Of a DNA stretch of 64,000 nt, positions 3,379-39,521 are shown piece after piece. The translations under genes were made by a program, and so were the position numbers. How positions within the stretch are numbered: position 1 is the stretch's first letter; each line of letters starts with the position of its first letter. Location of the stretch: NCBI GenBank assembly GCA_964588995.1, contig CAZPQM010000002.1:155020-219019 (forward strand), read 5' to 3'. The notes under the pieces are model-generated. The model was not told the DNA's origin and did no database searches. It was given only the letters and a program-made list of their open reading frames with translations. The DNA comes from an uncultured Rickettsiales bacterium (GTDB taxonomy: Bacteria > Pseudomonadota > Alphaproteobacteria > Rickettsiales > UBA8987).

Positions 3379-3531
3379 ACCTCCTCCTGTTTGCGGTGGA
3401 GGCAATGAGGCTTAGTGACGAAATTCACTTAGCTGCAATGGTGGGGGCAAGATGGCCCGAGCCCTCCCCATAAATCTAAGCGATGTTTCATCGCAAGATT
3501 TCTTGCCTCTCCCCAAGCAGGAGAGGAGGCA
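3379..3531. repeat. family-2 G/C-run palindromic MITE-like element (copy 1)
   Basis: Imperfect terminal inverted repeats: ACCTCCTCCTGTTTGCGGTGGAGGCA (3379-3404) and TGCCTCTCCCCAAGCAGGAGAGGAGGCA (3504-3531). It resembles the elements at 12888-13070 and 23296-23496. Confidence 0.6.
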
Positions 3532-3550: not shown

Positions 3551-4627
3551 ATGTCAGACGTAGCGCGTATTCTGGATGATGCGAAATCAGCGATTTCATC
3601 AAGTCAGTCACTGGATGACTTGGAAAAGATTCGCGTAAATTATCTGGGTAAATCCGGCGTTATTTCCGAACAGTTGAAAAGCCTGGGTAAGGCCCCGCCG
3701 GAGCAGCGCAAAGCGCTCGGGCAATCGCTGAATACCCTCAAGCAGGAGGTGCAAAGCCTTATTGAGTCCTCCCGTGCGCGGTTCGAAGAAGCGGCACTCA
3801 ACGCCCGTCTTGAGAAGGAATGGATTGACGTGACGCTCGATCCGCGCGAAGCGCAGCAAGGTACGATTCACCCGATTACGCAGGTCATGCAGGAGCTGAT
3901 CGCGATATTTGGTGCGCAAGGGTTTGAGATGGCCGAAGGGCCGGATGTGGAGGATGACTTCCATAATTTTACGGCGCTCAATATCCCGGAAGCCCACCCC
4001 GCACGGCAAATGCACGACACGTTTTATTTGCAAAGTGAAGATGGTGAAGCGCCGAATGTGCTGCGGACGCATACTTCTCCCGTACAAATTCGTGCGATGG
4101 AAGCGGGTAAGCCTCCGTTTCGGATTATCGCGCCCGGGCGGACCTATCGCTGTGATTCCGACCAGACACACACGCCTATGTTCCACCAGATTGAAGGGCT
4201 TTATATTGATAAGCATGTGACGATGGCGCAGCTGAAAGGGTGCTTGATTTCCTTTGTGGAAACCTTTTTTAATCTGGATGATGTGCCGGTGCGCTTCCGT
4301 CCGAGCTTTTTCCCCTTTACCGAGCCAAGCGCTGAGATGGATATCGGTTGCAAAAAAACCAAGCAGGAGCTGAAACTGGGTGAGGGCGATGACTGGTTGG
4401 AAATTCTCGGCTGCGGTATGGTGCATCCGAATGTGCTGAAAGCCGTGAATATCGACCCGGAGGAATATCAGGGCTTTGCCTTTGGTATCGGTATTGAGCG
4501 GCTCGCCATGCTGAAATATGGTATTGCGGATTTGCGCACCTTCTTTGATGCCGATAGCCGCTGGCTCGCGCATTATGGGTTTGCGCCCGAGGACGTACCA
4601 AGTTTGCAGGGGGGATTGGTTAAGTGA
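3551..4627 (+). CDS. pheS: phenylalanine--tRNA ligase alpha subunit
   Basis: 358 aa with class II aaRS motifs (FRPSFFPFTEPSAE, GFAFGIGIERLAML). Confidence 0.95.
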   Translation: MSDVARILDDAKSAISSSQSLDDLEKIRVNYLGKSGVISEQLKSLGKAPPEQRKALGQSLNTLKQEVQSLIESSRARFEEAALNARLEKEWIDVTLDPREAQQGTIHPITQVMQELIAIFGAQGFEMAEGPDVEDDFHNFTALNIPEAHPARQMHDTFYLQSEDGEAPNVLRTHTSPVQIRAMEAGKPPFRIIAPGRTYRCDSDQTHTPMFHQIEGLYIDKHVTMAQLKGCLISFVETFFNLDDVPVRFRPSFFPFTEPSAEMDIGCKKTKQELKLGEGDDWLEILGCGMVHPNVLKAVNIDPEEYQGFAFGIGIERLAMLKYGIADLRTFFDADSRWLAHYGFAPEDVPSLQGGLVK

Positions 4628-7147: not shown

Positions 7148-8574
7148 GTAGCTAGTTCTTTCTCAGCAGCTTCGGCGGCTTCGGAGTCTTTTTCTTCGAA
7201 GACGTTCAAGGATTTCAGTTTGCGGTGAAGTGCTGAACGTTCCATGCCGATAAAGCTCGCCGTGCGCGAAATGTTCCCGCCGAAACGGTTGATCTGCGCA
7301 GTGAGATATTGCCGCTCGAATACTTCCCGCGCTTCGCGGAGCCGCATCGACAAAATATCCGAATTCGTTTCCGGTGTCATCAGTGCGGGTGTAGTCGAGA
7401 ATACCTCCTGCGGCAGCATTTCCGAGGTTACCGGACCGTCTTCATCTGCAGGGCACATAATCAGCAGCCATTCAATCACGTTGCGGAGCTGGCGGAGATT
7501 ACCCGGCCAGTTATAAGCCTGAAGTGCCGCCATTGCATCGGGTGATAAATCGCGCGGCTGTAGCTTTGAGGTTTCCGCCGCATGAGCGAGCAGGCAATCG
7601 CAGATCAGCGGTATATCTTCGCGGCGTTCTTTAAGAGAAGGCGCTTCAAGCGGCACGACATTGAGCCGGTAATAGAGATCCTCGCGGAAATTACCTTTGC
7701 TGATCTCCTCTTTTATATCCTTATTAGTCGCGGAAATAACGCGCACATCGGCGTGCATTTGCTTACGTCCGCCGACACGTTCGAAATTACCGTCCTGCAG
7801 GAAACGTACGAATTTGCCTTGCGTGGTTGACGGGATGTCCGTAACTTCATCGATATAGAGTGTGCCACCATGCGCCTGTTCGAATACACCGACTTTCCGT
7901 GGGGGCGCGTTTAAATCCTCGCTGTCTTCGGTGCCAAAGAGCTCATGGTCCACCATATCGGTACCGAGCGTGCCGGCATTGAGCACGACAAACGGACCGG
8001 ATTTGCGGTTGGATTTCGCATGGATAGAGCGCGCGATCATTTCCTTGCCACTTCCTGCCGGACCGTTGATGAAGATGCGGCTACCGGTCGGCGCGACACG
8101 CTCGATTGACTGGCGAAGCTGCGTTACGGCAGCCGAGTCGCCGATGAGCAGGTTGATGCTGCCGGTTTTGAGCTTGAGCTCCTGATTTTCCTTTTTGAGT
8201 GACATAGCTTCAATGGCGCGGTCGACCGTATGAACGAGCCGGTCTTCCTTGAATGGCTTTTCGATATAGTCATATGCGCCCATTTTGAGCGAGCTGATCG
8301 CCGTTTCGATATTACCATGCCCACTGATGATAATCACCGGAGTGGACGGGTATTTCCGTTTGACGGTTTCCAATATACCTAAGCCATCCAGCGCACTGTC
8401 TTTCAGCCAGATATCAAGAATCAACGCATCGGGAATCTGTTCGGCAAGCGAAGCAAACGCCTCGTCACTGTTCTTCCCTGACTGCGTTTTATACCCTTCG
8501 TCTTCCAGAATGTCACAGATGAGCTCGCGAATATCTTGCTCATCATCAATTACGAGAACTGTTTTCCCCTGCAT
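7141..8574 (-). CDS. ntrX: NtrX-type response regulator (REC + AAA+ + HTH)
   Basis: 477 aa. Receiver domain (VLVIDDEQDIRE..DIWL), AAA+ (GPAGSGKE), C-terminal Fis-type HTH. It lies downstream of ntrY. Confidence 0.88.
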   Translation of the reverse strand: MQGKTVLVIDDEQDIRELICDILEDEGYKTQSGKNSDEAFASLAEQIPDALILDIWLKDSALDGLGILETVKRKYPSTPVIIISGHGNIETAISSLKMGAYDYIEKPFKEDRLVHTVDRAIEAMSLKKENQELKLKTGSINLLIGDSAAVTQLRQSIERVAPTGSRIFINGPAGSGKEMIARSIHAKSNRKSGPFVVLNAGTLGTDMVDHELFGTEDSEDLNAPPRKVGVFEQAHGGTLYIDEVTDIPSTTQGKFVRFLQDGNFERVGGRKQMHADVRVISATNKDIKEEISKGNFREDLYYRLNVVPLEAPSLKERREDIPLICDCLLAHAAETSKLQPRDLSPDAMAALQAYNWPGNLRQLRNVIEWLLIMCPADEDGPVTSEMLPQEVFSTTPALMTPETNSDILSMRLREAREVFERQYLTAQINRFGGNISRTASFIGMERSALHRKLKSLNVFEEKDSEAAEAAEKELATA

Positions 8575-8676
8575 ACGTACCCCAAGTATTTATGTTACCC
8601 AAAAACCCTTGTTGTACATATGCAACAAAGTGATGCATGAATCAACAGGAAAGTGAAAATTATTTCGGAGTGGTTA

Positions 8677-10908
8677 TCAAGCGATGGTTTTCGGCAGGCT
8701 GATGGTTATTGACGCTCCCAGAATGTCTTCCTGATCATTCTCGATATTTTGGATTTTCAGTGTGCCATCATGATCGGCGATCACTTTTTGTACAATGGCG
8801 AGGCCAAGGCCGGTACCGTGGGACTTGGTGGTAACATAAGGCTCAGTTGCGCGTTCGATGACATCCTGCGGGAAGCCGGTGCCGTTATCACTGATATGTA
8901 ATACGACCAGTTCCTCGGTTTCGGTTAAGGTGAGTTGTATATGCCCTTTTTCTTTCCCGCTTTGGGTGGCGAGCGCTTCCTGCACGGACTCCTGCGCGTT
9001 TTTAACCAGATTGACCAGCACCTGACCTATCTGCCCGGCATCGCAGCTGAAGGTGACATCTTCCTCCGGGATATCAAGCTCGATCGTAATCGCTTCATCG
9101 ACGAGGTTTTGCGACTCAGCAGTTTCGCGGATAATCTTACTTACATTTGCAGGTTTTATCTTGGCTTGCGGCATGCGGGCAAACTGCGAAAACTCTTCAA
9201 TAATGTCACCTATATTGCGCACATGCCGATTAATCGTATCGATATAGCGGTCAAAATTCGGCTTCCCTTCATCGATCTGTTTGCCGTATTTACTACGCAG
9301 GCGGTCAAGCGAAAGCTGAATCGGCGTCAGTGGATTTTTGATTTCATGCGCAATGCGTCGAGCCACATCGGACCAGGCGGCATTGCGCTGCGCGGCCACC
9401 AGCTCGGTAATATCGTCAAAGGTTACAACATAACCATCAATGTGGCCTTCAGTTGTTTCCTTGGCGATGCGCACCAGAAAGGTGAGGCGTTGCCCTTTCC
9501 GTCTGAGCCGTAATTCACGTTGATAGATATCGCGCTCCGAGTCGGTGAGTTCGTCGAGAAACTCTGCTATTTCGGGGAAAATACTTTCCAGTGGCGCGCC
9601 TTTAACCACTTCATGCTCAATATGCAAAAGATCGGTTGCTGCGCGGTTGGACAAGGTAATGATGCGGCCTTTATCTAGTGCCAATACACCGGCTGAGACG
9701 TTTGAAAGCACTGCCTCGTTGAGGCGGCGGCGTTCGTCAATCAAGCGGTTGACTTCCACCAGCTCGCTACGTTGTTTTTCCAGCTGGTCGGTCATGCGGT
9801 TGAAAGCGCGGCCCAGCGTGGCGGTTTCATCGTTGAGCGGTCCTTCCGGTACGCGGACATTCAGGTCGCCGCCCTTCACGCGCTCGGTCGCTTTAATCAA
9901 CCGGCTAAGCGGATTAACCAGCTCGCCCGCGAATATCATACCGCCCCAGATCGAAGCAAGCAGGATGAGCAGGGCGACCGCTATAAACACGAACGTAAAT
10001 TGCAATTGCACCTTGCCGATGCCCGAACGTAAGCGTTGATACTCATCGACCGAGCTTTGCGTCAGCTCCATGTGTGAGAGCACTTTTTCATCAATAAACC
10101 GGCCCACCAGCAGGTAGGTATCCTGCAGGGCGGGGTGGGCAAGCCTGATGAGTGCGCGTACCCGGTCGCCGCGCTCGTTGGTGAAGACGACAACATTGCC
10201 CTTAGAGGCTTTCTGAAAATAATCCGCCGGGAGTTGCTCGACCTCGAAGGTGAGGGAGAAGGTCAGATCAGATTTCGCGAGGATATTCTTGGTATCTTTG
10301 AAAATCAATGCTTCACGTAAGGAACGAATGGCCGACTGGGTGGAAATCACCTTCTTAAATTCCGCCGGATTGGCCGCGAGGCGGATGGCCTGATTGTTAA
10401 TATCGTTCGCCATGGCGAGCGCATCGGCGCGGATATTCAGCCGATGCTCCTCCAGATAGCTTTCGGCGACAGCGACGGACTCTTCCAGCGCGGTAGCGAC
10501 GCGATCATCAAACCAGCTTTGGATGCCCTGATTAAAAAAGATCACCGAAAATACGGCCATGAAAATGGTCGGGATCACGGACACCAGACTAAACATAAAG
10601 ATAATGCGACTTTGCAGGCGTGAGCCAACCGCCTGTTTTTTGCGTTCCAGTAGCAGACGAAGCAGGCGGTAGGTAATGAGCGCACCGAGCAGCAGCAACA
10701 GGCACACATTAATCAGCACCAGCCACACCACCGTTTCAGGGTCCGGGCCGAATGGGCTATCCGTTCCGAAAATAACGTAGGCGGTAAAGCTCGCTGCAAT
10801 GATGACCGCGCTAATCAGCGCGCGGTATAGAAATTTACTCCGCCGCCCACCGCGCAGCGCAGTTGCAAATAAATGTAAAGGGGAGGCGGGGGGGTCTAGC
10901 TGCGTCAT
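8677..10908 (-). CDS. ntrY: NtrY-type sensor histidine kinase
   Basis: 743 aa. Multi-TM N-terminus, HAMP, PAS, H-box (RRIAHEIKNPLTPIQL) and HATPase (GTGLGLAIV). Confidence 0.88.
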   Translation of the reverse strand: MTQLDPPASPLHLFATALRGGRRSKFLYRALISAVIIAASFTAYVIFGTDSPFGPDPETVVWLVLINVCLLLLLGALITYRLLRLLLERKKQAVGSRLQSRIIFMFSLVSVIPTIFMAVFSVIFFNQGIQSWFDDRVATALEESVAVAESYLEEHRLNIRADALAMANDINNQAIRLAANPAEFKKVISTQSAIRSLREALIFKDTKNILAKSDLTFSLTFEVEQLPADYFQKASKGNVVVFTNERGDRVRALIRLAHPALQDTYLLVGRFIDEKVLSHMELTQSSVDEYQRLRSGIGKVQLQFTFVFIAVALLILLASIWGGMIFAGELVNPLSRLIKATERVKGGDLNVRVPEGPLNDETATLGRAFNRMTDQLEKQRSELVEVNRLIDERRRLNEAVLSNVSAGVLALDKGRIITLSNRAATDLLHIEHEVVKGAPLESIFPEIAEFLDELTDSERDIYQRELRLRRKGQRLTFLVRIAKETTEGHIDGYVVTFDDITELVAAQRNAAWSDVARRIAHEIKNPLTPIQLSLDRLRSKYGKQIDEGKPNFDRYIDTINRHVRNIGDIIEEFSQFARMPQAKIKPANVSKIIRETAESQNLVDEAITIELDIPEEDVTFSCDAGQIGQVLVNLVKNAQESVQEALATQSGKEKGHIQLTLTETEELVVLHISDNGTGFPQDVIERATEPYVTTKSHGTGLGLAIVQKVIADHDGTLKIQNIENDQEDILGASITISLPKTIA

Positions 10909-10923
10909 GCTTATAATTTAGTA

Positions 10924-12228
10924 CTAATCATCCCCGACTTTGAGCGCGGCAATAAAAGCGGATTGCGGGATTTCCACATTGCCAAAGCTGCGCATCTTTT
11001 TCTTTCCCTTTTTTTGCTTTTCTAGCAGCTTTTTCTTGCGGGATATATCACCGCCATAACATTTCGCGGTTACGTCCTTCCGCATCGCGCTCACCGTCTC
11101 ACGCGCGATGATCTTACCACCGATCGCGGCTTGTATGGCGATTTTGAAGAGCTGGCGCGGGATTAAATCCTTCAGCCGGGCGCAGAGTGCGCGGCCACGC
11201 GGCTCCGCCTGCGAGCGGTGGACAATCATAGAGAGCGCATCAACCGGTTCCTGATTCACCAGAATCGAGACTTTCACCAGATCGCTTTCTTCATAGCCGG
11301 TGATTTCCCAGTCAAAACTGGCATAGCCGGAGGTGACCGATTTCAGCCGGTCGTAAAAGTCAAACACCACCTCGTTGAGTGGTAGTTTATACACCGCCAT
11401 TGCTCGGTTGCCGACATAGGTGAGGTTCTGCTGCTGCCCGCGCTTTTTGGTGCAGAGGTCAAGCACCGCGCCGAGATAGTCATCAGGCACCAGAATCGTT
11501 GCCTTGATCCACGGTTCTTCCATTGACTCGATATGAATCGGGTCGGGCATATCGGCCGGGTTATGCAGTTCTATCGTTTGAGCCGGACTGTCCTTGGTTT
11601 TTTTCATATGCAGTTTGTAAATCACGCTCGGCGCGGTAGTGATCAGGTCGATACCGAACTCACGCTCGAGCCGCTCCTGAATGATTTCCAAATGCAACAG
11701 ACCAAGGAAGCCACAACGAAAGCCGAGGCCAAGTGCGGCGGAAGATTCCTGCTCGAATTCGAAACTTGCATCGTTCAGATTGAGCTTCTCCATCGCATCG
11801 CGCATATCGTCGAACTGGTCGGCATCGGTCGGGAACAGCCCGCAGAATACGACCGGCAAGTTCGGTTTGAAGCCGGGTAGGGGTGTCTCTACCGGGTTGC
11901 TCGCATCGGTGATGGTATCGCCGACTTTGGCATCGCTGACCTGCTTAATCGACGCATTAATATAGCCGATTTCACCGGGGCCAAGCGTCTTAACCGAGGT
12001 TTTTTTCGGGCTGAAAATACCAACATCGTCTATGAGGTATTCCGCGCCGGTATTGACCATGCGCATCTTCATACCTTTTTTGAGCTCACCGGAAAACACG
12101 CGCACCAGCACAATGACACCGAGATAAGTGTCGTACCAGGAATCAACGAGTAGTGCTTTGGTTTGCATATCGCAGGGAGTATAGAGGGTTGGAAGTGGAG
12201 AGTCGAGCAGTTTGAGAGGGGTTGTCAT
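10924..12228 (-). CDS. lepA: elongation factor 4 (LepA), C-terminal fragment (domains II-V + CTD)
   Basis: [21 protein letters not shown]...[23 protein letters not shown]...[23 protein letters not shown] is unmistakable EF4. It has no G domain. The ATG lies inside a repeat terminus. Confidence 0.85.
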
Positions 12229-12507
12229 CGTGAATTTATTCCGGGTATTTTCATCGGCGCAATGGATACGGACAGGCTGTAAGACCCTCGAGTCATATAT
12301 TCGTCATTACGAGCGCAAGCGAAGTAATCTCCTTCTGATATCCTCCTGCCCCAGATTGCTGTGCTCCCCGCTGGTCGCTCACTATGACGGAATATATCGT
12401 CATCGCCCGAGGTGCGAAGCAGCTATAGGGCGATCCATCTCACCATCTACAACCCAGCCTCGCCATAGATTACCTTATAATTCGCATGCGCGCATTCGGG
12501 TAATGAC
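12222..12507. repeat. block of about three family-1 (CGTCAT...ATGACG) palindromic MITE-like units interrupting lepA
   Basis: Unit 12302-12390 (CGTCATTACGAGCG...CACTATGACGG). Unit 12398-12507 (CGTCATCGCCCGAGG...GGGTAATGAC). Partial unit about 12222-12300, which shares the 12-mer CCCGGAATAAAT plus GATGAC with the copy at 52081-52103. Confidence 0.7.
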
Positions 12508-12530
12508 TGGGCGATTGGAATGGCGTCAGG

Positions 12531-13274
12531 TTAGCGCTCGATAGGTGCCGGCAAGCGCTCGACGATGGCTTGCAGTAATTCTGCAATTCCCTGCCCGGTT
12601 TTGGCCGAAACTTCAATCGCATCGCTCGCATCAATGCCGATCACATCCTCGATCTGCGCTTTCACGCGCTCCGGCTCGGCGGAGGGGAGGTCGATCTTAT
12701 TCAGCACGACAATGATTTCATGGTCGTTCTCAATCGCCTGATAGACATTCGCCAGCGTCTGCGCTTCCACCCCTTGTGAGGCATCGACCACCAGCAACGA
12801 ACCTTCACACGCCGCTAAACTGCGGCTGACCTCATAACCGAAATCCACATGGCCGGGTGTGTCCATCAGGTTGAGGATGTACGTGCCGGGTTCGGGGTGC
12901 CCCCCCTTAATCCCCCCCGCAGGCGGGGGGGAGATAGAAGGATTGACTGCAGGCGGGGGGGAGATAGAAAGAGTATCGGATGGCGCTGGGAAGCTATTCT
13001 TTAACTCCTCCTCCCGTTTACGGGGGGAGGTTGGGAGGGGGGCTTCGTTATTGTTTTCAAGGGTGGAGTTATACTCATACTCGAGCCGTACCGTTTGGGA
13101 CTTGATGGTAATCCCGCGCTCGCGCTCAATATCCATATTGTCGAGCACCTGCTCTTTCATTTCGCGGTCAGTCAGGCCGCCGCATTCCTGAATCAGCCGG
13201 TCAGCCAGCGTGCTTTTGCCGTGATCAATATGGGCAATGATGGAAAAATTACGGATGCGTGTGATATCGGTCAT
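12531..13274 (-). CDS. lepA: elongation factor 4 (LepA), N-terminal GTPase-domain fragment with internal insertion
   Basis: [32 protein letters not shown]. It ends LPAPIER*. Its frame differs from the C-terminal fragment (305-nt offset). Confidence 0.85.
12888..13070. repeat. family-2 G/C-run palindromic element inserted in frame in the lepA G domain (copy 2)
   Basis: C7-GCAGGC-G7 hairpin. 21-nt direct repeat GCAGGCGGGGGGGAGATAGAA at 12919-12939 and 12949-12969 (30-nt period). CCTCCCGTTTACGGGGGGAGG hairpin. It translates as ...[52 protein letters not shown]. Confidence 0.7.
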
Positions 13275-13414
13275 AGGGGAAGAGTATAGAGAGGAGGAAG
13301 CGCGTAGTCGAGCGGTTTTAGCATGGCTTAGCCCATAGAAGGGTTAGATCGTACTTGCATTCCCAGTCCGATCGGCGTATGCCACCGAGAGGGTAATCAT
13401 ATGAGCATGGTTTC

Positions 13415-14794
13415 ATGAAAATTATCGTCTGTGGAGCGGGGCCAGTCGGCGCAGGGATTGCGCGTCAACTTGCCAATGAGGGCAATGACGTGACCGTGCT
13501 CGATAATTCGCCGGAGCAGATTCAGGAAGTAAACGAAACGCTTGATGTGACGGCGTATCGCGGGTTTCCGTCTCACCCTCCGGTGCTTGAGAATGCAGGC
13601 GCTTCCGATGCCGATATGATCATTGCGGTGACCAATTCCGATGAGACCAATATGGTGATTTGTCAGGTCGCACATTCGATTTTCAACATTCAGAAGAAGA
13701 TAGCGCGGATTCGACATAAAAACTACCTGATGCCGATCTGGAAGGATTTATATCGTCACGAGCATTTGCCGATCGATCATATCATATCGCCCGAAAATGA
13801 GGTGGCTGCCGCGATTATAAACCGCTTGCATGTGCCGGGTGCGACCGACTCCATCCCCATGGGGAATGATCGACTCAAGGTGATTGAGGTGCGGGTGCAG
13901 CCGGAATGCCCGCTGATTGGTCAGCCGCTCGGGCGGATCGAGGATTTGTGTAAACATTTGAAAATGTCAGTGCTTAGCATCATGCGTGAGCAGGTGTTTA
14001 TTCCGTTCAACCCCAAAGAAAAGCTGGAGCCGGGGGATGAGATTTACTTCGTGGCAGCTTCGGAAGACGTACCGGATATCATGGAGATATTTGGGGTGCA
14101 TGATCGGGAAGCGCGGCGCATATTAATCGTTGGTGGTGGTAATATCGGGTACTTCATTGCGCAACAGCTCGCAAAAGAGGACCATCGCATCAACATCAAG
14201 ATTATCGAGCTGAACGAGGAACGGGCGCAATATCTCGCTGGTAAGCTCTCGAAAATCACGGTGATCAATGGAAACTCACTCGATCAGGACATTCTGTTCG
14301 AATCCAATATCGAACAAACGGAAACGGTCATTTCGGTGAGCAATGACGACGAGGTGAATATTCTAACGTCGTTGCTGGCGAAGCGCTCCGGCGCGAAACG
14401 TTCGGTTGCGCTGGTCAATAAAGGGCGGTCATACTCGCCGCTTATTTCCTCGTTGGGTATTGATGTGATGGTTAATCCGCGCGAGATGACAGTTTCGTCT
14501 GTGTTGCAATATACGCGGAAAGGTAAGATTATCTCCGCCCATTCGATATGTTCTGGTGCGGCCGAAGTGCTGGAGGTGGAGGCGTTCAAAGAAGCATCGA
14601 TCGTGGGCCGGTCGGTTGATGATCTGGAATTGCCAAAATCTGTCAAGGTAGGTGCCATCGTACGTGATGAGATGGTGATTATTCCCAACCGGCGCACCTC
14701 CATTCATGAAAATGACCGGGTTGTGTTGATGACACCAACGGAATTTATCGGTCGGGTGGATAAGGTGCTTTCATCGCGCCATGATTATTTTTAA
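13415..14794 (+). CDS. trkA: Trk potassium uptake system protein TrkA
   Basis: 459 aa with two RCK/NAD-binding repeats (MKIIVCGAGPVGAGIA; ILIVGGGNIGYFIA). Confidence 0.9.
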   Translation: MKIIVCGAGPVGAGIARQLANEGNDVTVLDNSPEQIQEVNETLDVTAYRGFPSHPPVLENAGASDADMIIAVTNSDETNMVICQVAHSIFNIQKKIARIRHKNYLMPIWKDLYRHEHLPIDHIISPENEVAAAIINRLHVPGATDSIPMGNDRLKVIEVRVQPECPLIGQPLGRIEDLCKHLKMSVLSIMREQVFIPFNPKEKLEPGDEIYFVAASEDVPDIMEIFGVHDREARRILIVGGGNIGYFIAQQLAKEDHRINIKIIELNEERAQYLAGKLSKITVINGNSLDQDILFESNIEQTETVISVSNDDEVNILTSLLAKRSGAKRSVALVNKGRSYSPLISSLGIDVMVNPREMTVSSVLQYTRKGKIISAHSICSGAAEVLEVEAFKEASIVGRSVDDLELPKSVKVGAIVRDEMVIIPNRRTSIHENDRVVLMTPTEFIGRVDKVLSSRHDYF

Positions 14795-14885
14795 ACCCGA
14801 CAACGATAATGCAAGGTACGCGGCAGACGAGGGCGCTGACCTTACTGCTCTACGCACCATTACGGGCGGTTTATAGTATACTGCT

Positions 14886-15761
14886 ATGAATCATCGCATC
14901 GCTTACGTTAATGGTCGCTACCTTCCTGCCGGACAGGCAGCTGTGTCGATTAATGACCGCGGATTTACTTTTGCCGATGGTGTTTATGAAGTGATGTATC
15001 GCCTGAATGGCGTCCTGTTGGATGGGGCGTCGCATTTCAGGCGGCTGTATGACTCACTTGCGATGCTTTCGATGGATATGCCGGTGAGTGAGCCGACGCT
15101 TCGCCTGATAATCGATGAGCTGGCCCGAAGAAACCACATGCAGGACGGGATGGTCTATCTGCAGATAACGCGCGGGGTAGCAACGCGGAATCACGTTTAT
15201 CCTGCGAGCATGAAACCCTCGCTGGTGATTACGCTTTCGCCGCTTAAAACACCGCCAAAACGAGTCTATGAGCTGGGGCTAAAAGCAATTACGCACCCGG
15301 ATGAACGCTGGAAGCACTGCAATGCGAAAACGATCAGCCTGTTACCCAATGCGCTTGCTAAGCAAAAGGCTGCAGAGGCCGGATGTTTGGAGGCGATATT
15401 ATATAGCGAAAGAGAGGTGGTGACGGAAGCAGGGGCGTCTAACGTACTGATTGTTAATGCGGATGGTAGCCTGCAAACCCATCCGAAAAGTGCGGCAATA
15501 CTCCCCGGTATTACGCGCGATGTCTTGCTGCATTTGGCGGCTAAAGACGGTATTGAGGTTCGCGAATCCGCCTTTACGCTGGAGGCGTTGTTTGCTGCAC
15601 AAGAAGTTATGGTAACGAGTACGACCATGGGGCTGATGCCGATTATTCAGGTGGATGATCACACGGTTGGGAACGGCAAACCGGGCGAAGTGGCTGAGAG
15701 GCTGCTTGCACTCTATGATGTGCGTGTGTTAGACCTGACTGGCAAGCATTTTATAGAATAG
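14886..15761 (+). CDS. dat: class IV aminotransferase, D-amino-acid transaminase-like
   Basis: 291 aa with fold-type IV motifs (NDRGFTFADGVYEV, CNAKTISLLPNALAKQKA, EAGASNV). Confidence 0.75.
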   Translation: MNHRIAYVNGRYLPAGQAAVSINDRGFTFADGVYEVMYRLNGVLLDGASHFRRLYDSLAMLSMDMPVSEPTLRLIIDELARRNHMQDGMVYLQITRGVATRNHVYPASMKPSLVITLSPLKTPPKRVYELGLKAITHPDERWKHCNAKTISLLPNALAKQKAAEAGCLEAILYSEREVVTEAGASNVLIVNADGSLQTHPKSAAILPGITRDVLLHLAAKDGIEVRESAFTLEALFAAQEVMVTSTTMGLMPIIQVDDHTVGNGKPGEVAERLLALYDVRVLDLTGKHFIE

Positions 15762-15766
15762 GAATC

Positions 15767-16441
15767 ATGATGAAACGCCCCAAAGCCGTTCTGTTTGACT
15801 GGGATAATACTCTCGCCAATAGCTGGCCGATTATATTTGATGCGTTAACAAAAACTTTTGAGGATATGGGTCATGAGCCATGGACCTTCGAAGAGGTCAA
15901 AAGCGGGCGCGACGGTATTCACCATTCGTTGCGGGAGTCGTTCCCCCGTATCTTCGGTAAGGATTGGGAACAGGCCAAAGAGCGCTACTATGCCCATTTT
16001 CTTAAAGGCCATCTCGAGTTGATCGCACCGCTTGATGGCGCAAAAGAGGTGCTCGATGCACTCAAGGCGGCAGGTATTATCACCGGGATTGTCAGCAACA
16101 AAACCGGCAAATATCTGCGGGAAGAAGTTACGCATCTGGAATGGGACGATTATTTTCATACCGTAGTAGGCGCAACGGATGCAAAAGCAGATAAGCCCTC
16201 GGCAGACCCGGTCCTGCTTGCGCTGGAACATGTCGGTATTGAAGCCGGGGATGAGGTCTGGTTTGTCGGCGATAGTGCGACCGATGTTGAGGCGGCTTTA
16301 AACAGTAAATGCCATGCCCATGTATTTGGAGACGGCGTGATTGACCAGCTATTGATGGAAGATGAACGCCATGTTCTGCCTGTGATGCGGCATGATGACC
16401 ATACAAGGCTTCGCGCAGCTATTGATAAGGTTTTGAAATAA
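15767..16441 (+). CDS. HAD-family hydrolase (phosphoglycolate phosphatase-like)
   Basis: DWDNTL motif I, SNK motif II, GDSATD motif IV. Confidence 0.8.
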   Translation: MMKRPKAVLFDWDNTLANSWPIIFDALTKTFEDMGHEPWTFEEVKSGRDGIHHSLRESFPRIFGKDWEQAKERYYAHFLKGHLELIAPLDGAKEVLDALKAAGIITGIVSNKTGKYLREEVTHLEWDDYFHTVVGATDAKADKPSADPVLLALEHVGIEAGDEVWFVGDSATDVEAALNSKCHAHVFGDGVIDQLLMEDERHVLPVMRHDDHTRLRAAIDKVLK

Positions 16442-16454
16442 AATGAGGTAAGCC

Positions 16455-17993
16455 ATGCTGAAAGGCGCTGTAAAACTACTCATATTATCGCTGGTAGTCA
16501 TGATCGTAGGGGTAATTGCTTTTGCGCTCTATTACCCTTCCACGGTCAGTAAGGAACAGATTGTCAACCTGCTTAATGAGCGCGTATTTCTCCACAATGA
16601 TCAGCGGCTTATCGTAGAGGGTAATGCAAGCTTTTCCGTTCTGCCCGATGTATCAGCAGAGCTTGAGCAGTTCCGGCTAGTGAAGGCCGATCAACCGGAA
16701 GAAGTCATACTTGCAGGAAATGCACTCTCGCTCTCGCAAAATCTATGGCATTTCATGACGGGTAATCTCGGGCTTGAAGTGCTTGCGGATATGAAACAGG
16801 GTAAATTGAATGCGTTATTAGAAACGAGTCAGTTGAATGCGCTTCGCACCGGAGAGCCGGCTGAGGTCAGCCTCACGATCCGAGGTGATGTGAATGTGTT
16901 GCTGGAAGGCATGCTGCAACTCACGCCGGAGAGCATCGTGCTCAGTGATGCGACTTTTAAAGTCGATGATAATACCGACGGTGTGATCGACCTCACCGTT
17001 AACCTGCTGGCCAATAAACCGGATATTAATGCCGAGCTACATTTTGCGCAGCTTAGCGATAAAGGGTTGATGGCGGTTGCCGCTCCATTTGCTGCTCCGG
17101 TGCATCAGCAGGCAAGCGCTCCGAGACCGCAGCAAGGCATCTGGCGGACGGAACCGCTTGGCTTTGACGTCCTTAACACCGTCAACCTTACCCTCACCCT
17201 GAGCGCCAAAGAGCTGACCTATAATGATTTAATCCTTAGCGACGTCACAGCTTCTGCCATTATTAAAGGCGGGCGTCTGGACTTCAACGTCAAACAGGTC
17301 AAATTTTATGACGGCATGTTTTCCACGCAATTACAGGTGGATGCCAGCCAATCACCGCCTACCCTAACGCAGCGCAAGGAAGTCCGTAATTTTGCTCTAG
17401 GCCGCTACCTTGCCGATAGTGGGTTATATGACAAGTTCGAAGGGAACATCAGTATGAATTCCCGCCTGTCCAGCCGTGGCAACAGCGAAGCGGAAATCAT
17501 TCGCAACCTTTCCGGAACGGCTGATATCGTCTTAAATGACGGGTTGGTGCGCGGCTTTGATATTGTCGCGCTCGCGGATGCGGCAAAAACCGGCACGTCT
17601 CTGGATACAATGCTGCAACGGCAACCCAGTGATGCCGGAACGCGGATTCAGTCGCTCTCGGCCAGCTTCAATGTCCGCGAAGGAATCGTCCATAATCAGG
17701 ATTTACTCATCCAGATGCCGGTGACGAATTTTGACGGTAATGGCATACTGAATCTGAATACGCTACATGTCGATTACCGGCTGGTGCCGACGAAAGAAAT
17801 CAGCAAGCTCGATTTGCGGGTGCCGATTCTCATTCAGGGGGATGCGCGCAACCCGACCGTGTTCCCCGATCTTGCCAGTGTGTTGCAGCAGGGGCTGACC
17901 AAGGAGGGCGGCATCGAGGAAATCAAGAAATCCATCGATCGGCTTAAGGATGAAAACCCGGTTGATGCGTTTAAAGGGTTGCTTGGACGCTAG
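16455..17993 (+). CDS. AsmA family protein
   Basis: 512 aa with an N-terminal TM anchor and a C-terminal AsmA-like region (GTADIVLNDGLVRGFDI...). Confidence 0.7.
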   Translation: MLKGAVKLLILSLVVMIVGVIAFALYYPSTVSKEQIVNLLNERVFLHNDQRLIVEGNASFSVLPDVSAELEQFRLVKADQPEEVILAGNALSLSQNLWHFMTGNLGLEVLADMKQGKLNALLETSQLNALRTGEPAEVSLTIRGDVNVLLEGMLQLTPESIVLSDATFKVDDNTDGVIDLTVNLLANKPDINAELHFAQLSDKGLMAVAAPFAAPVHQQASAPRPQQGIWRTEPLGFDVLNTVNLTLTLSAKELTYNDLILSDVTASAIIKGGRLDFNVKQVKFYDGMFSTQLQVDASQSPPTLTQRKEVRNFALGRYLADSGLYDKFEGNISMNSRLSSRGNSEAEIIRNLSGTADIVLNDGLVRGFDIVALADAAKTGTSLDTMLQRQPSDAGTRIQSLSASFNVREGIVHNQDLLIQMPVTNFDGNGILNLNTLHVDYRLVPTKEISKLDLRVPILIQGDARNPTVFPDLASVLQQGLTKEGGIEEIKKSIDRLKDENPVDAFKGLLGR

Positions 17994-23295: not shown

Positions 23296-23496
23296 AACTC
23301 CCCCCTTGCGGGGGAGTCCACAAAATGCGTCAGCATGTTTGGGTGGGGGGGTAGGAGATAGTTCGATGACGTGATGATTGAATGATTAACCACCTCGGTA
23401 ATTCGTTTACCAATCATCCAATTATCGAACCATCTGATCAGCCATAGCCCCCCCACCTGAATCAATAGATTCAGACTCCCCCGCAAGGGGGGAGTT
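23296..23496. mobile_element. family-2 MITE-like element with perfect 22-bp terminal inverted repeats (copy 3)
   Basis: AACTCCCCCCTTGCGGGGGAGT (23296-23317) is the exact reverse complement of ACTCCCCCGCAAGGGGGGAGTT (23475-23496). There are inner G7/C7 runs and no credible ORF. Confidence 0.8.
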
Positions 23497-33340: not shown

Positions 33341-33715
33341 GTGTCAGGTTCCAGTATAAAAAGTTATCAAGATTTACATGTGTGGCAAAAAGCAATTGAG
33401 TTAGTAGAATTGGTCTATCAACAAACAGAAAATTTTCCCAAACACCAGCCTTATAGTTTGGGGCAGCAAATCGAGCGATCTGCTGTATCGGTTCCTTCTA
33501 ATATTGCTGAAGGTCGGACCAGACATAGTGTTAGAGATTTTGTATACCATCTAAATATCGCTCGTGGTTCTTTAGCTGAGTTAGAAACGCAAATCATTAT
33601 CGCAGAAAGATTACGATTTATTGATGCTGATCCCACGAAAGCCATATTTGCTCGTACAAGTGAGGTGGGCAAAATGTTAAATGGTTTAAAGAACTCCCTC
33701 AAACCCGAAACCTGA
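33341..33715 (+). CDS. four-helix-bundle protein (23S rRNA intervening-sequence protein family)
   Basis: [18 protein letters not shown]...[36 protein letters not shown] is the typical signature. GTG start. It is visibly AT-rich relative to hslV and hslU. Confidence 0.8.
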
Positions 33716-36214: not shown

Positions 36215-37174
36215 ATGAACAAAAGTTACATGGAAAATTTATTTCTTTATCACCTGCCGAAGTCAAGTAAGGTGTTTCTTCCTGAGTGGGATGCCCATTT
36301 GCGTTGTGATCATTTTACCATTGAAACCTGCATGCGTTATATTGTTATGGCTAAGGAGCCGCTCGCGCATGCGGCCTGTCGCTATGCGATGGAAGAACGG
36401 CAGGGGCGTGAGGCCTATCAATTTCTGCTGGAACTTGCCTGCGGTTTGCTGAGTAACATGCCGGGTGAGCCGGAAATTTTTGGACAGATTAAGCAGGCCT
36501 GGCAGCAAAAGCGTTCTGAGAATGAAGCGCTCAAAGAAGCGTTTGATCCTATCATGCGTTCTTTATTTCAGGATACAAAACGGATCCGCTCTAATCACTT
36601 ACAGGGCGTCACTGGTGCCTCCTATTTCAGCGCGACGGAAAAGCTGATTAATTTGAAGCGTGACCATAATGTGCTTATTATCGGTGCTGGTCAATTTGGC
36701 ACGATGCTGGCGCACAATATTGCAAAACGGACGGACGGGCTGTTTATTTGCAATCGTTCGGAGAAAGCGCTTGAGCCGTTGGTTGAAAAGCTCAATGATA
36801 AACTGACCATTTTACCTTTCTCAGCCGAGATAGAGCGCGCCATTTCCGATATGGATCATGTATTGATTGCGCTGCCATCCTTTGCCGATCAGGCAATCAA
36901 TGATGCTATTATTAATGGATGGCAGTCGAAGCAGGAATATACGGGGCATCTCGTGCATTACTGTGAATATATTGATGAAGCATCGCGCTGGCGGAAGCTG
37001 CCGAATAGCTTTGCGCTGGAGGATGTTCTCTGCCTGCAATCCGTTCAAACAGAAAAGCGCGAAAAGGCGTTTGAGGCGGCGTATCAGGCCGTTAAAGAAT
37101 ATTCGCACAAACGGTATCTACAACCTGTCGGTATAGCCTGCAATCATTATGCATCTCAAACTGGGAACGCGTAA
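36215..37174 (+). CDS. hemA: short, divergent glutamyl-tRNA reductase-like protein
   Basis: IETCMRY (compare the TCNR active site), LACGLLSNMPGEPEIFGQIKQAW (compare GLxSxxxGExQIxGQVK), Rossmann VLIIGAGQFGTMLA. It is only 319 aa and sits at the head of the hemC-hemL-hemE cluster. Confidence 0.6.
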   Translation: MNKSYMENLFLYHLPKSSKVFLPEWDAHLRCDHFTIETCMRYIVMAKEPLAHAACRYAMEERQGREAYQFLLELACGLLSNMPGEPEIFGQIKQAWQQKRSENEALKEAFDPIMRSLFQDTKRIRSNHLQGVTGASYFSATEKLINLKRDHNVLIIGAGQFGTMLAHNIAKRTDGLFICNRSEKALEPLVEKLNDKLTILPFSAEIERAISDMDHVLIALPSFADQAINDAIINGWQSKQEYTGHLVHYCEYIDEASRWRKLPNSFALEDVLCLQSVQTEKREKAFEAAYQAVKEYSHKRYLQPVGIACNHYASQTGNA

Positions 37175-38117
37175 ATCTGCGCTGGCGCTTGCCCAAAGTC
37201 AATGGGTGGCCGATCAGCTAGAAGCGCTTAGTAATGACATTACAGCAGAACTTATTGGCATCGAAACACAGGCCGATGAGTCGCGAGGTGGCGTTTATGC
37301 AACGAAGCCGCTTTCGCAGCTAGATGGTAAAAACTTTTTCATTAAAGAGTTGGATGACGCGCTTCTTTCCGGGATCACGCATCTTTCTGTTCATTCGCTT
37401 AAGGATCTAAGCCTTGAACGCCCTGATGCGATTGAACTGGCTGCTATTCCAAAGCGAGAGGACGCGCGGGATGTGGTAATTCTATCCGCTAAGGGAAAAG
37501 CTAAGTTAAGAGCAGGTAAGGCGCTCTCTTTGGGTACATCATCCCCTCGACGGATAGAAAATATCCCTCCTTTGTTGCGTGCTGAATTTGGCTCGCACAT
37601 TGAGGTGAAGGAAATCAGAGGTAATATCACCACACGTATTGGGCGGTTGCATGATTTGGGGAAGCGTTATCTGGACGGTGTTGCATTGGCCTTAGCCGGT
37701 ATAAAACGCCTGTATGCTTCTGAGCAATATCGTAATCAACTGACACCAAAGCTGGCAGGGGTGTTCTTTTTACCTCTGCCGCTGGCAAGTAACCCAACGG
37801 CACCGGGACAGGGTGCGCTCGCAATCGAATGTTTAAAAGAAAATCAGGATATTCTGCTGACACTACAACGCCTGCACTCATTATCTGCGGCGGAAGATAT
37901 TGCTAAAGAGCGTGCTATTCTGGCGAAATATGGCGGCGGGTGTCATCAAGCGTTTGGTGCAAGCCGTATCCGGGGTGGAAAAGCAGGCGAATACGCGTTA
38001 TATATTCGCGGGCGTACCGAATCCGGCCAGATTTTGGACGAGGTGCATGGCAGCTTGCAGGCAACGGAAGATAGCTTGCAGATTTTTGATAGTTTACAAG
38101 CATTAATGTCATCCTGA
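37149..38117 (+). CDS. hemC: hydroxymethylbilane synthase (porphobilinogen deaminase)
   Basis: LKLGTRKSALALAQ..., SVHSLKDL, LGTSSPRR, RGNITTR, APGQGALAIE, GGGCHQAFG. It overlaps hemA by 26 nt. Confidence 0.85.
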   Translation: MHLKLGTRKSALALAQSQWVADQLEALSNDITAELIGIETQADESRGGVYATKPLSQLDGKNFFIKELDDALLSGITHLSVHSLKDLSLERPDAIELAAIPKREDARDVVILSAKGKAKLRAGKALSLGTSSPRRIENIPPLLRAEFGSHIEVKEIRGNITTRIGRLHDLGKRYLDGVALALAGIKRLYASEQYRNQLTPKLAGVFFLPLPLASNPTAPGQGALAIECLKENQDILLTLQRLHSLSAAEDIAKERAILAKYGGGCHQAFGASRIRGGKAGEYALYIRGRTESGQILDEVHGSLQATEDSLQIFDSLQALMSS

Positions 38118-38172
38118 CCGTAGTGAAGGGCTTCTGTCTATTATAGATTCTTTGCTGACGTTCAGAATGACG
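38108..38172. repeat. family-1 palindromic repeat unit supplying the hemC stop codon
   Basis: GTCATCCTGACCGTAGTGAAGGGCTTCT...AGATTCTTTGCTGACGTTCAGAATGACG. The hemC TGA is at 38115-38117. Confidence 0.7.
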
Positions 38173-38198
38173 CTTACAATGAAGAAACGGGTTTTTCC

Positions 38199-39521
38199 AT
38201 GACCAGCACACAGCATTCTGAAGCATTATTTGAACGGGCGAAGCGCGTTACACCGGGTGGAGTGCATTCTCCTGTTCGCGCTTTTAAGTCCGTAGGCGGA
38301 ATACCGCGTTTTATTACGGAGGCAAAGGGTGCTTGTCTCACCGATGCGGATGGCAATCAACTGGTGGATTATTGCATGTCTTGGGGGCCGCTGATTTTCG
38401 GCCATCAGGATGAGGATGTTGCTGGCGCGATTCATGATGCGATGGACAAAGGGTGGACGTTTGGCACGGCTTCCCATTATCCGCTAGAACTCGCGGAATA
38501 TATTACTGAGCGCATAAAACATGTTGAAAAGATTCGTTTTGTAAATTCGGGAACGGAGGCGGTGATGTCGGCCATTCGTGTGGCGCGTGGAACGACTGAG
38601 CGGAACAAAATCGTGAAATTTGCCGGCTGTTATCATGGCCATGTGGATAGTCTGCTAATTCAGGCAGGTTCCGGGGTTGCGGAAATGGCGAAGCCGGATA
38701 GTGCCGGTGTGACTGAAGGAACAGCGGCAGATACGATCGTTTGTCCGCTTAATGATGAGGCCGCACTCAACCAGATTTTTGAAATACATGGTCGAGAAAT
38801 AGCCGCGGTAATAATGGAGCCATTGCCTGCGAATTTTGGCTTACTGATACAGCGGGATGAATATCTACAGTTTGTTCGAGAAATCACACAACGCTATGGC
38901 AGTTTGCTTATTTTTGATGAGGTGATGTCCGGATTTCGCATCGGCTTTGGCGGCATGGCGGAGCGAACCGGGATTGCACCGGATCTGGTAACGTACGGCA
39001 AAGTGATTGGGGGAGGTTTTCCGGTCGGAGCGTTTGGTGGCCGTGCTGATCTTATGGATGCCGTTGCGCCAGTTGGGCCAGTCTATCAGGCGGGTACATT
39101 GTCGGGCAATCCGGTGGCCATGCGGGCTGGGTTTGCTACCCTTAAAAAACTATATGAGCAGTCACCCTATGAGCAGCTGGATTCGATTACTTCGAAGCTA
39201 GCGAACGATCTGCAGCAGGTCGCAAAGTCCAAAGGCTTCGCGCTTTCCGTACAGCATGTCGGTTCAAAATTCTGGCTGATTCCTGATGAAGTGCAAACGG
39301 AAGATGGCATGGTGAGGGATGTAAAGTCACTTCCGGCTGAAGCGATGAAACGTTTTGCGCATATTTTCCATGGGCTACTCAATCGCGGATATTATCTTGC
39401 GCCGAGTGGCTTCGAGGTGGGTTTTATGGCGACTGTGCACACTGAAGAAGTTAACGCCGGCTTGGTAGATGCCTTTGAACAGGTGTTAGAGGAAATGACA
39501 GAGGAAAGGAAAGCCTCGTGA
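38199..39521 (+). CDS. hemL: glutamate-1-semialdehyde 2,1-aminomutase
   Basis: SEALFERAKRVTPGGVHSPVRAFKSVGG..., FDEVMSGFR, TYGKVIGGGFP. Confidence 0.93.
   Translation: MTSTQHSEALFERAKRVTPGGVHSPVRAFKSVGGIPRFITEAKGACLTDADGNQLVDYCMSWGPLIFGHQDEDVAGAIHDAMDKGWTFGTASHYPLELAEYITERIKHVEKIRFVNSGTEAVMSAIRVARGTTERNKIVKFAGCYHGHVDSLLIQAGSGVAEMAKPDSAGVTEGTAADTIVCPLNDEAALNQIFEIHGREIAAVIMEPLPANFGLLIQRDEYLQFVREITQRYGSLLIFDEVMSGFRIGFGGMAERTGIAPDLVTYGKVIGGGFPVGAFGGRADLMDAVAPVGPVYQAGTLSGNPVAMRAGFATLKKLYEQSPYEQLDSITSKLANDLQQVAKSKGFALSVQHVGSKFWLIPDEVQTEDGMVRDVKSLPAEAMKRFAHIFHGLLNRGYYLAPSGFEVGFMATVHTEEVNAGLVDAFEQVLEEMTEERKAS

Follow-up and report, generated by a model that had tools for sequence, protein, structure and literature searches.

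Rickettsia palindromic elements (RPEs) are found in frame in conserved ORFs, where they are read as an extra peptide (MITE review, PMC10969869). Bacterial MITEs such as ERIC, Correia and the Anabaena elements are small and transposase-less, carry terminal inverted repeats and occasionally lie in frame in host ORFs (PMC10969869). In REPINs, two short units, each an imperfect palindrome, stand inverted to one another with a spacer between them, and the whole folds into a long hairpin (PMC3116915). Here we describe a palindromic insertion in lepA, the gene for the translational GTPase EF4, in a 64-kb stretch of DNA from an uncultivated alphaproteobacterium (hereafter the window, meaning the whole stretch that was analysed) and compare it with these systems.

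The N-terminal ORF of lepA, which encodes the EF4 G domain (247 aa), lies on the minus strand at 12531..13274, and its product is 100% identical to database protein P0001. Pfam matched GTP_EFTU (PF00009) to residues 6-242 (E 1e-53), and EF4 structures were the top matches of this ORF both by sequence and, with Foldseek, by fold. Alignments showed that G1-G5 of the translational GTPase domain are present and that every invariant G-motif column is kept. The closest LepA homologues were MAGs labelled Alphaproteobacteria or Rickettsiales, and the identity to Nisaea was 73-75%. Comparisons with 10 and then with 58 homologues located a net in-frame insertion of 59 codons (177 nt, S70-E128) at 12891..13067 of the minus strand, in agreement with the preliminary description, which had reported an in-frame palindromic insertion of about 60 codons in the LepA GTPase domain. 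The insertion site lies between G2 (RGITIK) and G3 (DTPGH) at the tip of a hairpin formed by beta2 and beta3, and the insert replaces residues 66-68 of E. coli LepA at the beta2-beta3 turn.

The loop at this site has 6 residues in 224 of the 225 LepA homologues that were fetched and cover the region, some of them about 80-84% identical to this protein, and 64 residues in this protein alone, which bears out the earlier statement that most EF4 proteins have only a short loop. G/C runs are absent from the loop of the relatives, and the ancestral loop had 6 residues. When 1.84 billion representative proteins were searched exhaustively with phmmer, the 62-residue insert peptide turned up in no other EF4, and a homologous protein insert, the refuting test that had been set beforehand, was likewise found in none of the other 224 homologues. 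Outside the insert, the protein carries 2 conservative changes across the 109 columns that are at least 95% conserved, compared with a mean of 0.9 and a maximum of 5 in controls; the G domain outside the insert is conserved like that of any homologue.

The ORF reads through the insert without a stop, the encoded loop is rich in proline, serine and glycine, and the insert is stop-free in two of its six frames. Its G+C content is 62-65%, compared with 51% for the whole 64-kb window. In an AlphaFold model based on a 59-sequence alignment the G domain was folded (pTM 0.70), and residues 73-124, flanked by beta2 (61-68) and beta3 (130-138), had pLDDT values below 50 and no secondary structure. The insert is thus predicted to be a disordered surface loop, and the earlier placement at a surface loop between G2 and G3 agrees both with the E. 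coli LepA alignment and with the AlphaFold loop.

At the DNA level, a perfect hairpin, TCCCCCCC-GCAGGC-GGGGGGGA, occupies 12911-12932, an imperfect hairpin, CCTCCC-GTTTAC-GGGGGGAGG, occupies 13009-13030, and an outer inverted repeat has its arms at 12899-12918 and 13024-13043. Read from end to end, the insert is built of GCCCCCCC-TTAA, the hairpin TCCCCCCC GCAGGC GGGGGGGA, an intervening stretch, the hairpin CCTCCC GTTTAC GGGGGGAGG, and finally TTGGGA-GGGGGGC. Arm 1 (12898..12936, minus strand) comprises a G7-ATTAA-G7 linker and the perfect hairpin, and arm 2 (13003..13044, plus strand), inverted with respect to arm 1, comprises the imperfect hairpin followed by TTGGGA and then G6. Two tandem 30-nt units, each made of loop, G7A and spacer, lie at 12919..12978 of the plus strand and encode a ten-residue peptide and ISPPPAGG; the two units (12919-12948 and 12949-12978) are 83% identical over the 30 nt, and their initial 21 nt are the same. 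The C7-GCAGGC-G7 hairpin, the 21-nt repeat at a 30-nt period and the second hairpin that had been noted earlier were therefore all recovered.

The palindromic core, likely the mobile unit, spans about 12897..13043 and is the part common to the lepA insert and an unrelated ORF described below. Its predicted fold is an outer stem enclosing two hairpins, with a z-score of only about -2, and the mRNA strand of the insert is strongly structured (-64 kcal/mol over 191 nt). No Rfam family was found over the whole window at gathering thresholds, nor over 12000-13400 at E up to 10, and a tRNA/tmRNA scan found none. Several features of MITEs were present, namely inverted arms of 37-42 nt, a core of 147 nt and no transposase gene. 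Two properties of the insert count against a mobile element: the core, at 145-147 nt, has a length not divisible by three, and the insert extends beyond the core by about 30 nt of flanking sequence (13044-13067 and 12891-12898) that is not palindromic. No clean target-site duplication or direct repeat flanking the core was visible in the sequence, no GTAG or CTAC adjoins either insert hairpin on reading the sequence, and the 58 larger ORFs of the window gave no match to a transposase or RAYT family.

A phmmer search with the insert peptide found P0122, an unrelated ORF of 195 aa on a different NCBI contig of 67 kb. (The top match of this peptide search, P0121, was discarded as an unrelated repeat protein.) P0122 and the lepA insert have two 12-residue peptides in common, and ISPPxAxNP units number three in P0122 and two in the insert. 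When P0122 was compared with the window by tblastn, it matched 13043..12894 (E 5e-15). Because the ends of this match are the ends of the inverted repeat, the unit common to P0122 and lepA is the palindromic core and not the lepA flanks. Judged from these alignments, P0122 is a second copy of the core with matching boundaries. The two are the known copies of this particular element, the part of the source genome examined being the 64-kb window, and so low a number counts against a mobile element. When metagenomes were scanned for the 19-mer GCAGGCGGGGGGGAGATAG, the two matches were chance ones in unrelated G+C-rich coding DNA, and neither the DNA motif nor the peptide motif led to relevant literature.

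The 17-mer G6ATTAAG6 (equivalently C6-TTAA-TC6) was scanned in 185,579 species genomes, which gave at least 120 stretches. Among the matches listed, the arm 17-mer was present in Nostoc, Microcystis, Chloroflexota, Poribacteria, Desulfobulbaceae, a Rickettsiales MAG and others. The 17-mer continued as T-C6, a loop and a run of five or more G at 101 of 128 sites among the matches listed, and at these 101 the loop was of 7 nt in 62 cases and of 8 nt in 22. A second, inverted arm (C-stem, loop, G-stem, TTAGGG or TTGGGA, G run) was found at 46 of the same 128 sites among the matches listed, compared with 0.4% of control segments. No Rfam family was found over eight loci bearing the module.

We built a covariance model, R1, from 23 second arms of cyanobacteria, Chloroflexota and other phyla, none of them from this window. 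One insert arm had been the source of the search pattern, and R1 was built from the other, independent arm type. Against the 64-kb window R1 gave two significant matches only, and these were the two insert arms on opposite strands: arm 1 with 27.4 bits (E 6.4e-6) and arm 2 with 24.1 bits (E 6.6e-5). Both satisfy the pattern of the R1 arm (C-stem, loop, G-stem, short linker, G run). Since the two significant matches are its arms on opposite strands, the insert can be described as an inverted doublet of the R1 arm. The earlier view that the underlying DNA is palindromic and not protein-like is upheld, and the insert behaves like a dispersed repeat, as seen from the match of both arms to this cross-phylum model and from the copy in P0122.

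The unit of loop, G run and spacer was also seen in tandem amplification, with 2-4 units, in ten of the loci from other genomes. Such recurrent amplification elsewhere explains the 21-nt repeat at a 30-nt period in lepA, and the number of units seems to change fast in this type of arm element.

Arms of this kind were also found in coding regions. Among the matches listed for the arm 17-mer, 18 of 133 fall in long open frames in other genomes, and in three genes the in-frame insertion is real and supported by Pfam. One C6-TTAA-TC6 arm lies in frame in the LeuRS editing domain of a gammaproteobacterial MAG (locus L115, about 374-410), another in the acyl-CoA dehydrogenase middle domain of a Dehalococcoidia chromosome, where the domain is split into two matched stretches (locus L108, about 820-960), and a third in an N6 DNA methylase of Anaerolineales (locus L116, about 3872-3910). 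In addition, an arm copy follows directly after a GH3 domain in Thermodesulfovibrionales (locus L017, about 2479-2514). As in-frame copies occur in genes of other phyla, coding palindromes of this arm may be cross-phylum.

Two intergenic palindromic elements of the window, both with C-run/G-run hairpin termini, had been proposed as relatives of the insert: one at 3379-3531 between rplT and pheS, and one at 23296-23496, with perfect 23-nt terminal inverted repeats, between the mlaE-like and mlaF-like genes. The kinship proved weak. BLAST of the insert and both elements within the window gave no significant cross-match, the best being 16 nt long with E 0.68. In 3379-3531, the left hairpin agrees with the insert at 15 of 17 bases, with 0.08 matches of three or fewer mismatches expected by chance, and this element was not detected with R1; the termini of 23296-23496 were the third- and fourth-best R1 matches (E 0.3-0.4). 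The layout of the intergenic elements is reversed relative to the insert, with hairpins outside and G/C runs inside, an arrangement also present in a copy from a Rickettsiales MAG. From these partial likenesses, the intergenic elements may be distant relatives of the lepA insert. Judged by statistically supported nucleotide similarity to the intergenic copies, the second refuting test of the preliminary description, the idea of a selfish element would fail; it is carried instead by the other evidence.

Both intergenic palindromes sit inside conserved operons. Elsewhere in the window, a 124-aa gene at 33341-33712, between hslV and hslU, encodes a '23S rRNA-intervening sequence protein' or bAvd-like protein (PF05635, E 9e-37). 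A haem cluster (hemH, hemC, hemE) contains genes for glutamyl-tRNA reductase and a class-III aminotransferase (hemL-like) at 36215-39518, and by its gene content points to the C5 route to aminolevulinate, which is unusual for alphaproteobacteria. At 319 aa the glutamyl-tRNA reductase ORF is short, and the match to the profile of its N domain starts only at profile position 70. A possible excess of 40 residues in DnaB was, on inspection, not a palindromic insert.

Taken together, we consider it probable that a REPIN- or MITE-like palindromic element, mobilised in trans, landed in the codons of the EF4 loop and was kept because it was in frame, stop-free and at the tip of a hairpin, with the 30-nt duplication coming later. 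The element would have been non-autonomous, about 115-147 nt long, and built like a REPIN or MITE as an inverted doublet of two G/C-run hairpin arms, and it would have entered the codons of the beta2-beta3 turn of the G domain. An enzyme such as a RAYT-like or IS transposase may have mobilised it in trans. Its survival would rest on a length that is a multiple of three, the lack of stops in the lepA frame and the position at a surface hairpin tip. The insert is presumably translated and tolerated as a disordered loop rich in proline, serine and glycine, and the 30-nt internal unit was probably duplicated in tandem by slippage afterwards, with the frame kept.

The expectation that the reading frame is preserved holds through the insert and not beyond, as lepA is split after RLPAP. 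The G-domain ORF ends three codons past this motif (stop at 12531-12533), and the split begins about 360 nt downstream of the insert. A spacer at 12229..12530 of the minus strand, identical in an independent assembly, separates it from the C-terminal ORF (10924..12228, minus strand), which lies in another frame about 300 nt downstream and carries domains II-V and the LepA C-terminal domain (PF03144, PF00679, PF06421). The likely true start of this C-half is the ATG at 12165 (M22), and homology resumes near 12171. No single polypeptide here contains the G domain together with domains II-V and the LepA C-terminal domain. The spacer contained no LepA remnant by blastx and no Rfam family. It holds a second, different imperfect palindrome at about 12300-12392, CGTCATAGTGAGCG...CGCTCGTAATGACG, which may resemble a widespread 'GTCATTGCGAGCG' repeat.

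These features lend some weight to the view that lepA is a recently inactivated pseudogene in which the open frame through the insert is a coincidence. The gene has a stop and a frame change after RLPAP, followed by a spacer of about 300 nt with another palindrome; with two of the six insert frames open, an open insert with a length in multiples of three would arise by chance in about 1 of 9 cases; and several bacteria can do without lepA in the laboratory. We nevertheless consider inactivation unlikely. Both halves are 80-84% identical to homologues and contain no further stops or frameshifts, and departures from conserved columns are no more numerous in the G domain than in functional homologues. 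The same breakpoint recurs in four other alphaproteobacterial assemblies with both halves intact, separated or at different loci: in one a membrane-protein gene lies between the halves, in two the G-domain gene was found alone, and in the fourth a stand-alone C-half adjoins tatC and serS. Most of the near LepA homologues are unsplit. Furthermore, a TCGACT-N17-TATACT segment upstream of the lepA ATG (13283..13311, minus strand) is duplicated at 12178-12206, before the ATG of the C-half. The two upstream copies are identical at 30 of 40 nt, a score reached in 0 of 2000 shuffles, and the motif occurs nowhere else in the window. This duplicated 40-nt segment suggests that both halves are expressed as a functional two-gene arrangement, which argues against decay, and the split looks like a gene fission with a duplicated leader.

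The insert might also have originated at its present site and not from mobile DNA, if a G/C-rich loop sequence slipped or expanded or if the EF4 loop was extended adaptively. The 30-nt tandem duplication inside the insert would fit such an origin, as would the missing target-site duplication and the lack of a transposase among the 58 larger ORFs. Against it, the ancestral loop has 6 residues and in relatives is free of G/C runs; the unrelated P0122 contains the same core with identical ends; and both arms match arms from other phyla. The copy in P0122, the recurrence of the arm in other genomes and the R1 matches show the core to be one copy of a dispersed palindromic element rather than a home-grown loop, and we regard an origin in place as improbable.

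We also assessed whether the insert could be an artefact of assembly, in which the repeat induced a mis-joining or an inflated number of repeat units within lepA. The Logan assembly of run SRR7048223 equals window positions 7924-12928 and 13017-16794 with 0 mismatches. Its two contigs stop at 12928 and 13017, inside the two hairpins, so that independent support covers the junctions and not the central 88 nt (12929-13016), and hence not the repeat copy number. Because this independent assembly matches with no mismatch, both insert junctions are real. The flanks are moreover consecutive lepA codons in one frame and orientation, and the total length of the insert keeps the frame. On this evidence an artefact is very improbable. 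That the short-read assembly of SRR7048223 breaks exactly in the insert hairpins fits a G/C-run structure that is repeated or hard to sequence.

The strongly structured mRNA strand might suggest an intervening sequence that is lost from the transcript or from the protein, as with an intron, a mini-intein or a translational bypass, but this is hardly credible, given that no Rfam match appeared even at E up to 10, that Pfam found GTP_EFTU alone and no Hint/intein domain, that 59 residues are below intein size and that there is no stop codon needing a bypass. Intein and intron were rejected on these grounds, and CRISPR was rejected with only two repeat units present.

Beyond the single insertion into lepA, both arms could belong to one so far unclassified miniature palindromic family, of the form C6-TTAA-TC6-loop-G6A or its inverse (C-stem-loop-G-stem-TTRGGN-G4-6). 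Such a family would be near-identical across cyanobacteria, Chloroflexota, Poribacteria, Desulfobulbaceae and gamma- and alphaproteobacteria, and would have entered in frame repeatedly, in loops of EF4, LeuRS, acyl-CoA dehydrogenase and DNA methylase. We put this forward tentatively and consider it rather doubtful. If true, RPE-like 'coding palindromes' would be a cross-phylum phenomenon with one structure-specific mechanism of mobilisation, and if the arm family is truly common to several phyla, the question arises of what moves it. R1 provides a concrete arm model for the genome-wide counting of such elements.

Comparison with the modules of the form C6-TTAA-TC6-loop-G6A from Nostoc, Microcystis, Chloroflexota, Poribacteria and the Rickettsiales MAG showed the same arm signature, doublet build, amplification of the G arm and in-frame genic copies as in the lepA insert. 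In the cyanobacterial modules a spacer of 15-19 nt separates the arms and the two loops are reverse complements of each other, whereas the lepA insert has about 70 nt between its arms and two unrelated loops, GCAGGC and GTTTAC.

Among the described systems, MITEs resemble the lepA insert in being small, in having no transposase gene and terminal inverted repeats, and in lying in frame; the insert differs in that its terminal repeats are themselves hairpins and that no target-site duplication was seen. With REPINs it has in common two arms on opposite strands (12898-12936 and 13003-13044) and an outer stem over two hairpins. REPs, however, carry a GTAG-type tetranucleotide beside their hairpins, which is absent in the lepA insert, REPINs are mobilised by RAYT (Y1) transposases, for which the 58 larger ORFs of the window gave no match, and REPINs are overwhelmingly extragenic, whereas the lepA insert is genic.

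The likeness to RPEs, which the preliminary description had emphasised, stands for the mode of working and not for family membership. As with RPEs, a palindrome of about 100-150 nt lies in frame in an unrelated conserved gene at a site compatible with the fold, where it is presumably translated. By its LepA neighbours, however, the host is not Rickettsia; RPE copies number dozens, compared with the two known for this element; and the G/C-run hairpins that form the arms of the lepA insert are also present in cyanobacteria, Chloroflexota and other phyla. The comparison was made by the description of RPEs, and by this analogy the resemblance is one of mode of working. Because the likeness to RPEs and REPINs lies only in working and build, and GTAG is absent, we assign the insert to a known kind, palindromic repeats that lie in the reading frame of a conserved gene. 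Rickettsia offers the best-documented examples of such in-frame insertions, and the clear case in another alphaproteobacterium, in the GTPase core of EF4, which is universally conserved, extends the phenomenon, as do the sister cases in LeuRS, acyl-CoA dehydrogenase and the methylase in other phyla. With the loop predicted to be disordered, the case would also mark which loop of a translational GTPase tolerates an insert of 59 residues.
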